64,000 bases of DNA from an uncultured Clostridia bacterium (GTDB lineage Bacteria; Bacillota; Clostridia; UMGS1883): positions 66,089 to 130,088 of the forward strand of contig CANQRB010000006.1 of assembly GCA_947626145.1 (NCBI GenBank), written 5' to 3'. The position numbers and the translations under genes were made by a program. Positions 39,877 through 40,739 of this stretch are shown in pieces. Each line of letters starts with the position of its first letter. Position 1 is the stretch's first letter. The notes below the pieces were generated by a model. That model ran no database searches, was not told the origin of the DNA, and saw only the letters and a program-made list of their open reading frames with translations.

Positions 39877-39954
39877 CGCGGGGTAGAGCAGTTTGGTAGC
39901 TCGTCGGGCTCATAACCCGGAGGTCGTGTGGTTCAAATCCCACCCCCGCAACCA
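39877..39954 (+). tRNA. Initiator tRNA-fMet (anticodon CAT)
   Basis: cgcggggtagagcagtttggtagctcgtcgggctCATaacccggaggtcgtgtggttcaaatcccacccccgcaaccA is near-identical in pattern to E. coli tRNA-fMet: three G-C pairs in the anticodon stem and a C1-A72 mismatch. CCA is encoded. Confidence 0.85.
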
Positions 39955-39961
39955 ACAATAA

Positions 39962-39992
39962 AAACAGACGTCTTTGCGGGCGTCTGTTTTTT
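39962..39992 (+). terminator. Intrinsic terminator of the tRNA-fMet transcript
   Basis: aacagacg-tctttgcggg-cgtctgtttttt. Confidence 0.65.
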
Positions 39993-40032
39993 CGTTTATC
40001 GGCAAATCTGAACAAAGACCGTCATTTTGCCC

Positions 40033-40065
40033 CGAGGGCACTTGACATCGGGGCGGGGAAAATGG
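40033..40065 (+). promoter_or_regulatory. Candidate promoter for the DUF2442-like ORF
   Basis: TTGACA-tcggggcggggaaaatgg-TATAAT (18-nt spacer), followed by an approximately 150-nt leader. Confidence 0.45.
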
Positions 40066-40216
40066 TATAATTGTTGTAGATGATTGGAGAGTGATAGTTT
40101 TGCCAACAATGGCTGGGCCGCGTTTCATCAGGAGGAGCTGCTTGAAAACCGGGCTCTCGCGGAAAACAGGCAGGAGCTTTTCGCAATAGAACCTCTGAGA
40201 TAAGGAGAGTTGCCGC

Positions 40217-40567
40217 ATGAAAAAGGATGTAAATTATTACCTCGCCAACGGCTTTGACCGGCCCATGGCGGAATATTTTGCCTCAGGGCGCAAGCGTATC
40301 ACCGCCGTTTCCCCAAACAGCGATTTTACGCTTACGCTGGATTTCGACAACGGTGAGAGGAGAATTTTAGACTGCAAGTCCTTCTTGAAGGCCGGCACAG
40401 TCTTTGAACCCTTTATTCGGTTTGAGAATTTCAAGCGCGTATATCTTGACGACACCCACTGTGTGGCGTGGGACATCGACCCGTCTGTTGACAGCAATGT
40501 TGTCTGGGACAATAAGGTCGATTTATGCCCGGACTGCTGCTATGTTGACAGCGTGCCGGTGGTTTAG
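40217..40567 (+). CDS. Small hypothetical protein (DUF2442-like)
   Basis: 116 aa. Pattern TLTLDFDNGERRILD...VAWDIDPSVDSNVVWDNKVDLCPDCCY resembles DUF2442 (...W.NGAD.cPD.LY). RBS AAGGAGAG. Bracketed by the tRNA-fMet and a copy of its 3' end. Confidence 0.45.
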   Translation: MKKDVNYYLANGFDRPMAEYFASGRKRITAVSPNSDFTLTLDFDNGERRILDCKSFLKAGTVFEPFIRFENFKRVYLDDTHCVAWDIDPSVDSNVVWDNKVDLCPDCCYVDSVPVV

Positions 40568-40641
40568 CGCAGCCGCCTGTGCGGCGCCGCAGCGATACAA
40601 ACCAACATGCTGCCGCATTGCAGCCCACGCAAACCCATATT

Positions 40642-40698
40642 GGTTCAAATCCGCAGCCAACATAAAAAAACAGACGTCTTTGCGGGCGTCTGTTTTTT
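40642..40698 (+). repeat. Duplicated tRNA-fMet 3' fragment (T-loop onward) plus terminator: att-like direct repeat or tRNA remnant
   Basis: ggttcaaatccgcagccaacataaaaaaacagacgtctttgcgggcgtctgttttttg matches 39930-39992 (ggttcaaatcc...aacagacgtctttgcgggcgtctgtttttt). The acceptor-stem portion is diverged. Confidence 0.6.
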
Positions 40699-40739
40699 GT
40701 TATTGCGGATCTCCTGTCCGCGCTTTTTACTGTTTGGGC

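Follow-up and report, generated by a model that had tools for sequence, protein, structure and literature searches.

The segment that begins with the initiator tRNA-fMet gene in a 64,000-nucleotide stretch of an uncultured Clostridia bacterium (GCA_947626145.1, contig CANQRB010000006.1, positions 66,089 to 130,088; hereafter, the window) is very probably the remains of an element that integrated into this tRNA gene and then decayed, leaving a toxin-antitoxin module in which the DUF4160 toxin gene is dead and the DUF2442 antitoxin gene is intact. The object is a further example of a well-known kind, the tRNA-gene island fossil, and opens no new question. The gain lies in annotation, as a repeat, a supposed leader, and a lone open reading frame (ORF) would all be explained by one ordinary process, namely insertion into a tRNA gene followed by deletional decay, and the ORF could be annotated as a DhiA-like orphan antitoxin instead of a hypothetical protein.

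Direct repeats of the 3' part of the target tRNA flank the window insert, with the intact tRNA at one end. An original prediction, made from the sequence alone, had described a tRNA-fMet 3' end and terminator duplicated ~700 bp downstream, and both the repeat finder and a gapped alignment agree with it. The repeat finder uncovered a 33-nt perfect direct repeat (39960-39992 and 40666-40698), which spans a terminator hairpin with its A and T runs, as well as a 12-nt perfect repeat within the T-loop, TGGTTCAAATCC (at 39929 and 40641). These motifs are not due to chance (0 of 100 shuffles matched the observed counts). Gapped alignment merged the two matches into one homologous block, 39929-39996 against 40641-40701, which places the second T-loop-to-terminator segment (40641-40701) 706-712 bp downstream of the first. 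Copy 1 (39929-39996, plus strand) consists of the T-loop, the 3' strand of the acceptor, CCA, and the terminator, and copy 2 differs from it by a 7-nt deletion (CACCCCC), two substitutions, and one 1-nt indel. The whole 824-nt structure was found base-for-base identical in four other independent metagenome contigs or assemblies.

The intact initiator tRNA expected at the left end was confirmed. ARAGORN and Rfam (58.5 bits) both call an intact tRNA-Met(CAT) at 39876/7-39953, and its sequence carries the initiator marks, i.e., a C1xA72 mismatch, an anticodon stem closed by three G-C pairs (GGG/CCC), and A11:U24. Together with the flank homology described below, this identifies 39877-39953 (plus strand) as an intact initiator tRNA-fMet gene that acts as attL, and in which the attB-like target is still complete. 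A terminator scan assigned to it an intrinsic terminator with a 14-bp stem and a T-run (39960-39992, plus strand).

A full element occupies the same chromosomal site in a sister taxon, and the window insert is homologous to this bona fide element, which directly supports the "decayed integrative element" of the original prediction. The sister locus (L098, from the NCBI metagenome-assembled genome GCA_947630975.1) shares the order mutS-ylbF-miaB-tRNA-fMet with the window, and its MiaB is 96% identical to that of the window. The host flanks of the two loci show 89.2% DNA identity over 4.2 kb, and this homology stops exactly at the tRNA 3' end (39954). Downstream of the tRNA, L098 carries an integrase gene, an HTH_17 gene, three small ORFs, an LRR_5 gene, an intact DUF4160 gene, and an intact DUF2442 gene, in that order. 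The integrase is a 389-aa tyrosine integrase (Phage_integrase, 3e-27, plus Phage_int_SAM_5), the HTH_17 protein (57 aa, 5e-15) is of the excisionase type, and the DUF4160 protein matches the Pfam family at 5e-22. In addition, one small ORF (L098 5906-6274, minus strand) corresponds to the C-terminal fragment of a type II / D12-class DNA methyltransferase with a DPPY motif; since this gene has been reduced to a fragment, the sister element is itself partly decayed.

The ends of the sister element were defined on a composite of L098 and L086, which are overlapping contigs of one taxon. Overlapping contigs of this taxon (L086, L087, and L099-L101) extend past DUF2442 into a 48-nt fragment identical to the 3' part of tRNA-fMet, from G30 of the anticodon stem to CCA, and the fragment is followed by the same terminator as the one behind the intact L098 tRNA. 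In the composite, two 87-nt direct repeats, with 86 of 87 positions identical, begin at G30, comprise the 48 nt of tRNA plus the terminator, and lie 6337 bp apart. The sister element (~6.3 kb) has a GC content of 43.6%, compared with 57% in the host flank. An element in a tRNA gene is flanked on one side by the intact tRNA and on the other by a repeated tRNA 3' part, which is the standard anatomy for crossover in the anticodon stem-loop by a tyrosine recombinase, and we take the sister element to belong to the anticodon-loop class of tyrosine-integrase tRNA sites (Williams 2002). Indeed, it resembles tRNA-targeting islands and integrative elements in its intact tRNA and 3' repeat, in its integrase gene next to the tRNA with HTH_17 following, and in its low GC content. 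It differs from them in that its 87-nt identity block continues beyond the tRNA for ~39 nt, into the terminator, and thereby exceeds the length needed for tRNA restoration, whereas the window locus differs in having no recombinase and a truncated attR.

Homology between the window and the sister element begins at ~40019-40021, which corresponds to L098 ~9648-9650. According to blastn, window positions 40021-40110 align to the promoter and the first 11 nt of the intact DUF4160 gene, and positions 40110-40640 align from DUF4160 codon 57 onward; both segments are 81-82% identical to the right end of the sister element. The spacer between DUF2442 and attR (40568-40640, plus strand) is homologous to the sister element and represents the right arm of the window element (the blastn match extends to 40640). 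Relative to the sister, the window lacks a stretch of ~5.4 kb that starts directly behind the attL terminator and stops ~50 bp upstream of the toxin-antitoxin promoter, as well as 157 bp inside DUF4160, ~62 nt at attR, and 7 nt of the T/acceptor stem. The 26 nt at 39993-40018, to which no homologue could be assigned, form the junction or scar left by the ~5.4-kb loss of the integrase-to-LRR_5 part. Alignment and comparison with L086, L087, and L099 define the truncated attR (40641-40701, plus strand) as a T-loop-to-CCA fragment of tRNA-fMet, with the 7 nt deleted, plus the terminator copy; the ~62 nt missing from it correspond to the end of the element arm and, within the original 48-nt tRNA fragment, to the portion with the anticodon and variable loops. 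We rejected a second decayed tRNA upstream of copy 2, as the bases before TGGTTCAAATCC align to the spacer of the sister element and not to tRNA. The remnant has a GC content of 50.8%, compared with 56.6% for the whole window, so that its base composition, like that of the sister element, is foreign to the host.

The original prediction had also suggested a search for integrase pseudogene traces. Tblastn with every protein of the sister element detected neither an integrase nor any other upstream element gene in the 64-kb window, and the only extra match was that of a 34%-identical LRR_5 repeat to an unrelated gene (41576-42823). Because the integrase is absent between the repeats, the window holds a remnant and not an element; moreover, the lack of a recombinase, together with the loss from attR of the part in which the sister identity block begins, renders this remnant immobile, i.e., a fossil that cannot move.

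Cis-mobilizable elements (CIMEs), which derive from integrative conjugative or mobilizable elements (ICEs/IMEs), are decayed elements in which attL and attR are kept and the genes for integration and transfer are gone, and accretion at tRNA 3' ends is documented (PMC5704250). A remnant of that type could still be mobilized if an incoming related element used its attL and attR for excision or co-transfer, and in the window attL (the intact tRNA) is complete, with related integrases being present in the clade. However, the deletions at attR took the whole anticodon stem-loop part along with 7 nt of the acceptor/T-stem, and since the missing stretch is where the 87-nt block begins in the sister, the likely crossover region is gone. 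The window attR has thus not been kept intact, so that the remnant lacks the defining feature of a CIME, and we regard continued mobilization as very improbable.

The sister locus also bears on the other alternative raised in the original prediction, a tRNA-gene duplication remnant, according to which tRNA-fMet and its terminator were duplicated in tandem, the second copy decayed, and DUF2442 is an ordinary chromosomal gene between them. The same terminator follows both copies (33/33 identical), as local duplication would give, unlike simple site-specific integration. However, no relative has two full tRNA-fMet genes, let alone such a pair with the ORF conserved as core (the state by which the original prediction was to be refuted), the second copy in the sister starts precisely at G30, and a low-GC, integrase-bearing element of 6.3 kb lies between the sister copies. 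In addition, the DUF4160-DUF2442 pair, with an 80-85% identical antitoxin, is found next to a topoisomerase gene of the DNA_topoisoIV family (gyrA/parC type) in L090 and L093 (2727-3351) and at the integrase end of a prophage in L094-L096 (2701-4862), where the integrase adjoins tRNA-Asn in L095 and L096. Given these unrelated contexts, the pair moves between element types and is mobile cargo rather than core to the locus. L098 largely refutes the tandem duplication, which we consider scarcely credible.

The part of the element that survives between the repeats is its toxin-antitoxin module. The TTGACA-18-TATAAT promoter noted in the original prediction is present at 40042-40071 (plus strand, 12/12 consensus) and aligns to the promoter upstream of the intact DUF4160-DUF2442 pair in L098/L086, which makes it the native promoter of a dhiTA-like operon. 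The region behind it had been read as a ~150-nt leader. Tblastn, blastn, and alignment revealed instead a DUF4160 (DhiT-like toxin) pseudogene (40100-40203, plus strand), and an Rfam scan of 39600-40800 with permissive thresholds gave the tRNA alone, with no small RNA (sRNA) or riboswitch in the supposed leader. The pseudogene retains the start with the first 11 nt, a frameshifting deletion at 40110/40111, and the last 30 codons with the stop. In blastn and in global alignment, the deleted stretch corresponds to L098 9740-9896 (157 bp), and the codons behind it are out of frame, so that the operon fails to provide an intact upstream DUF4160 gene. In a tblastn search with the sister DUF4160 protein, 28 of the 30 remaining residues were identical (93%) at 40111-40200 (E = 4e-17), and the tail contains one window-specific amino-acid change, which replaces a Trp invariant in the other copies.

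The DUF2442 gene (40217-40567, plus strand) is intact, is preceded by an AAGGAG ribosome-binding site 6 nt upstream, and encodes 116 aa. Its assignment, proposed in the original prediction as DUF2442-like, is upheld by Pfam (PF10387), where it scored 33.6 bits against a gathering score of 23.9 (E = 4.6e-8). Its closest homologues are 91, 85, 84, and 80% identical, and the first of these (P0002) is the partner of the intact DUF4160 in the sister element. An 86-aa DUF4160 gene precedes the DUF2442 homologue in every retrieved context and is intact in all four close ones. The DUF2442 protein gave no match among annotated phage genomes and PDB sequences, and PADLOC returned no defence-system match for the DUF4160 or the DUF2442 protein.

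DUF4160 and DUF2442 form an experimentally validated toxin-antitoxin family of type II with the toxin gene first, and DhiT/DhiA of Dickeya dadantii 3937 is functional in vivo, where the antitoxin by itself represses the promoter in part and its complex with the toxin does so more strongly (PMC8198452). On Thermus thermophilus plasmids, a DUF4160/DUF2442 "persistence enhancing module" raises plasmid persistence; deletion of the DUF2442 ORF yielded no transformants, whereas deletion of the DUF4160 ORF was tolerated (PMC12724237). DUF4160 is also listed among effector domains in a comparative study, where DUF2442 typically follows it (PMC12065111). Since DUF4160/DUF2442 is the published DhiT/DhiA family, the window ORF is predicted from its sequence to be an orphan DhiA-like antitoxin that has a promoter, a ribosome-binding site, and a terminator of its own. 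The sister DUF4160 protein scored 71 bits (7e-20) against NCBIfam toxin_DhiT, under the equivalog cutoff of 100, and we therefore view it as a distant relative of DhiT. The window module shares the domain pair, the toxin-first order, and an own promoter with the Dickeya and Thermus systems. It differs in that its toxin gene is dead, in that toxicity, neutralisation, and operon autoregulation are known for the Dickeya and Thermus members whereas this clade is known from sequence, and in that the DUF2442 protein, at 116 aa, is longer than the Pfam domain, being extended at the N-terminus and bearing a CPDCC motif at the C-terminus.

Antitoxins orphaned next to a degraded toxin are a frequent finding, and it has been suggested that they serve in anti-addiction (PMC7192599). 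The window gene resembles them in having a degraded-toxin neighbour in its original context, one of the sources discussed for Klebsiella pneumoniae (PMC7192599). The toxin was presumably lost first, as this is the only decay order safe for the cell. We raise, as a doubtful though conceivable extension, that selection has kept the orphan antitoxin as an anti-addiction or immunity gene against the DhiT of related elements and of prophages carrying the pair; such a protective role is conjectural in the window, which sets it apart from described anti-addiction modules. If so, the antitoxin would let the host lose or resist elements that re-invade the intact tRNA-fMet target without being killed. 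The locus also offers a naturally occurring case, within the little-studied DUF4160/DUF2442 family, of a dead toxin beside a living antitoxin, and it could serve in cross-neutralisation tests.

Building on the homology, boundaries, deletions, and family assignments observed here, we propose that a small tyrosine-integrase element inserted into the tRNA-fMet gene next to miaB by a crossover that probably took place in the anticodon stem-loop region. The element would have supplied a new tRNA 3' part and terminator (attL), with the old ones displaced to the far end (attR). Decay, in a presumed order, would then have removed ~5.4 kb with the integrase gene, the HTH_17 excisionase-like gene, and cargo, stripped attR of its anticodon-loop half and 7 more bases, and destroyed the DUF4160 toxin gene by the 157-bp frameshifting deletion. 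The module promoter, the dead toxin gene, the intact antitoxin gene, and the terminator would be left behind, and transcription of the antitoxin most likely continues from its own sigma-70-type promoter.

Several observations weigh against this scenario, and they concern the site, the terminators, and the divergence of the remnant. With regard to the site, an empty version (tRNA-fMet followed by the right flank of the window) was not found in any relative examined, and the insertion is therefore deduced from the occupied site of the sister rather than from a presence/absence pair. The right flanks differ in all relatives. Among the closest relatives, contigs terminate at the tRNA or bear other inserts; a scan of GTDB genomes with MiaB revealed that the two closest species (81-85% identical) have contigs ending at or just after the tRNA and that more distant genomes lack the miaB-tRNA-fMet adjacency. 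The contexts of further MiaB homologues are likewise occupied or rearranged sites, the more distant ones having no tRNA there, and no exact match to the window MiaB is on record. The right flank of the window is also unrelated to that of L087, where a large serine recombinase gene (1530-2357, minus strand), cut by the contig end, lies directly to the right of the sister attR and terminator. The latter gene suggests a further mobile element beside the first.

With regard to the terminators, the two copies are identical within each genome and unrelated between the window and the sister (L098 4185-4224), even though both lie inside the att repeat. The window hairpin, ACAGACGTCTTTGCGGGCGTCTGT, bears no relation to the sister hairpin, GGAGCAAGCGTCGCATCGCTTGCTCC, which is common to L106 and L107. 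Simple integration leaves this identity unexplained, because attP x attB recombination predicts the element terminator at attL and the host terminator at attR. The identity could possibly stem from an attP that carried a copy of the local host terminator, from earlier rounds of integration with imprecise loss or accretion, or from gene conversion between the repeats. The element family may also carry its own terminator and impose it on the host initiator tRNA gene, which, if true, would explain the match within a genome along with the difference between genomes. Pattern scans of JGI metagenomes and IMG/VR gave zero matches to the window terminator.

With regard to divergence, the window and sister DUF2442 genes differ with dS = 0.87 and dN = 0.051 (ratio 0.06), and this dS exceeds that of the host genes (0.25-0.39) between the same two loci. 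The remnant and the sister element may therefore stem from separate insertions of related elements, and such separate insertions at one site are no less probable than a single ancestral event. The tail of the dead DUF4160 gene has a dN/dS of 0.03 between the window and the sister; since it shows the same constraint pattern as DUF2442, the 157-bp deletion is recent relative to the divergence. With L090 as the outgroup, the window branch of DUF2442 acquired 10 synonymous and 9 non-synonymous substitutions (9/19 non-synonymous, fewer than under neutrality; binomial p = 0.002), and the sister branch acquired 17 and 4, respectively. The resulting non-synonymous/synonymous ratio is higher on the window branch (~0.24) than on the sister branch (~0.06), a difference that is not significant (Fisher p = 0.09). 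The antitoxin may be under relaxed constraint, and the pattern is compatible with constraint that persists in relaxed form as well as with constraint that was lifted recently. Substitutions from AT to GC and from GC to AT numbered 12 and 6 on the window branch versus 7 and 13 on the sister branch, and the GC content at third codon positions is 0.64 for the window DUF2442 gene and 0.51 for the sister copy, compared with ~0.74 for host genes. On account of this lean and of a third-position GC content nearer to that of the host, the window copy looks partly ameliorated and longer resident.

The elevated divergence of the remnant relative to the host genes would also fit a remnant imported already decayed, by homologous recombination through the tRNA and terminator, or terminators homogenised later by gene conversion, as would terminators that are perfectly identical while the adjacent tRNA-derived bases have diverged. 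However, no donor sequence was found, the window terminator being unmatched in the JGI metagenome and IMG/VR scans, and import would alter the route of arrival alone, as the object would still be a decayed tRNA-integrated element. We assign this possibility a small chance, and decay of an element integrated into tRNA-fMet is the reading that we retain.

Other relatives show different arrangements at this position. In L106 (85% identity to the window MiaB; 1527-2509), a 187-aa tyrosine integrase fragment, which comprises the C-terminal catalytic part only, and an unannotated 132-aa ORF sit between tRNA-fMet and a penicillin-binding-protein-like gene; they represent another decayed element at the site, distinct from the first. 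The L102 contig (90% MiaB identity; 1-40) stops at ...GGGCTCATAA in the anticodon loop of tRNA-fMet, a few bases past G30, which hints at the boundary of a repeat or of a presence/absence polymorphism. An IS3 transposase gene adjoins the tRNA in L007. In L107 (~297-500, window orientation, upstream of miaB), a ~115-nt module occurs twice in tandem downstream of tRNA-fMet, with no integrase nearby; the module consists of the terminator hairpin and a GGAGC..GCTCC-rich segment, is common to L098 and L106, and may in its tandem form be the scar of earlier integrations. Collectively, the miaB-adjacent tRNA-fMet gene has clearly been used repeatedly as an integration site in this clade, and the locus illustrates it as a recurrent target in uncultured gut Oscillospiraceae/Clostridia.

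The tRNA-fMet gene is preceded by a promoter of its own (TTGACA-17-TATAAT with an extended-10 TG; 39808-39836, plus strand; 12/12 in a consensus scan), whose position is kept in L098, L102, L106, and L107. The window tRNA is 1 nt longer than usual, as the 5' strand of its T-stem (GUGUGG against CCCAC; 39922-39946) implies a bulged U. In L007 (~495-520, minus strand), L106, and L107, the corresponding strands read AUGUGG and CCCAU, and since this compensatory change from G:C to A:U preserves the bulged helix, this unusual T-stem is apparently genuine and conserved across the clade. The 5' end of the L098 tRNA-fMet reads AGCGGGG instead of CGCGGGG (L098 4107-4110), which replaces C1xA72 with A1xA72 and reflects either genuine variation of the initiator mismatch or a mistake in the assembly. 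Sub-threshold matches in the permissive Rfam scan, namely STnc240 at both terminators and S774 over the 5' region of the tRNA, were dismissed as terminator and tRNA look-alikes.

Terminator copy 2 (40666-40698, plus strand), which comprises the A-run, hairpin, and T-run, is potentially bidirectional and would then serve both DUF2442 on the plus strand and the convergent gene that ends at 40740 on the minus strand. This neighbour (40740-41468, minus strand) encodes 242 aa with a signal-peptide-like N-terminus and three tandem repeats of ~59 aa. The repeats have a 177-nt period and 92% DNA identity, their unit reads ELTEEQKAEMAENAK...GGKRHG, and Pfam gave faint hints such as SHOCT.

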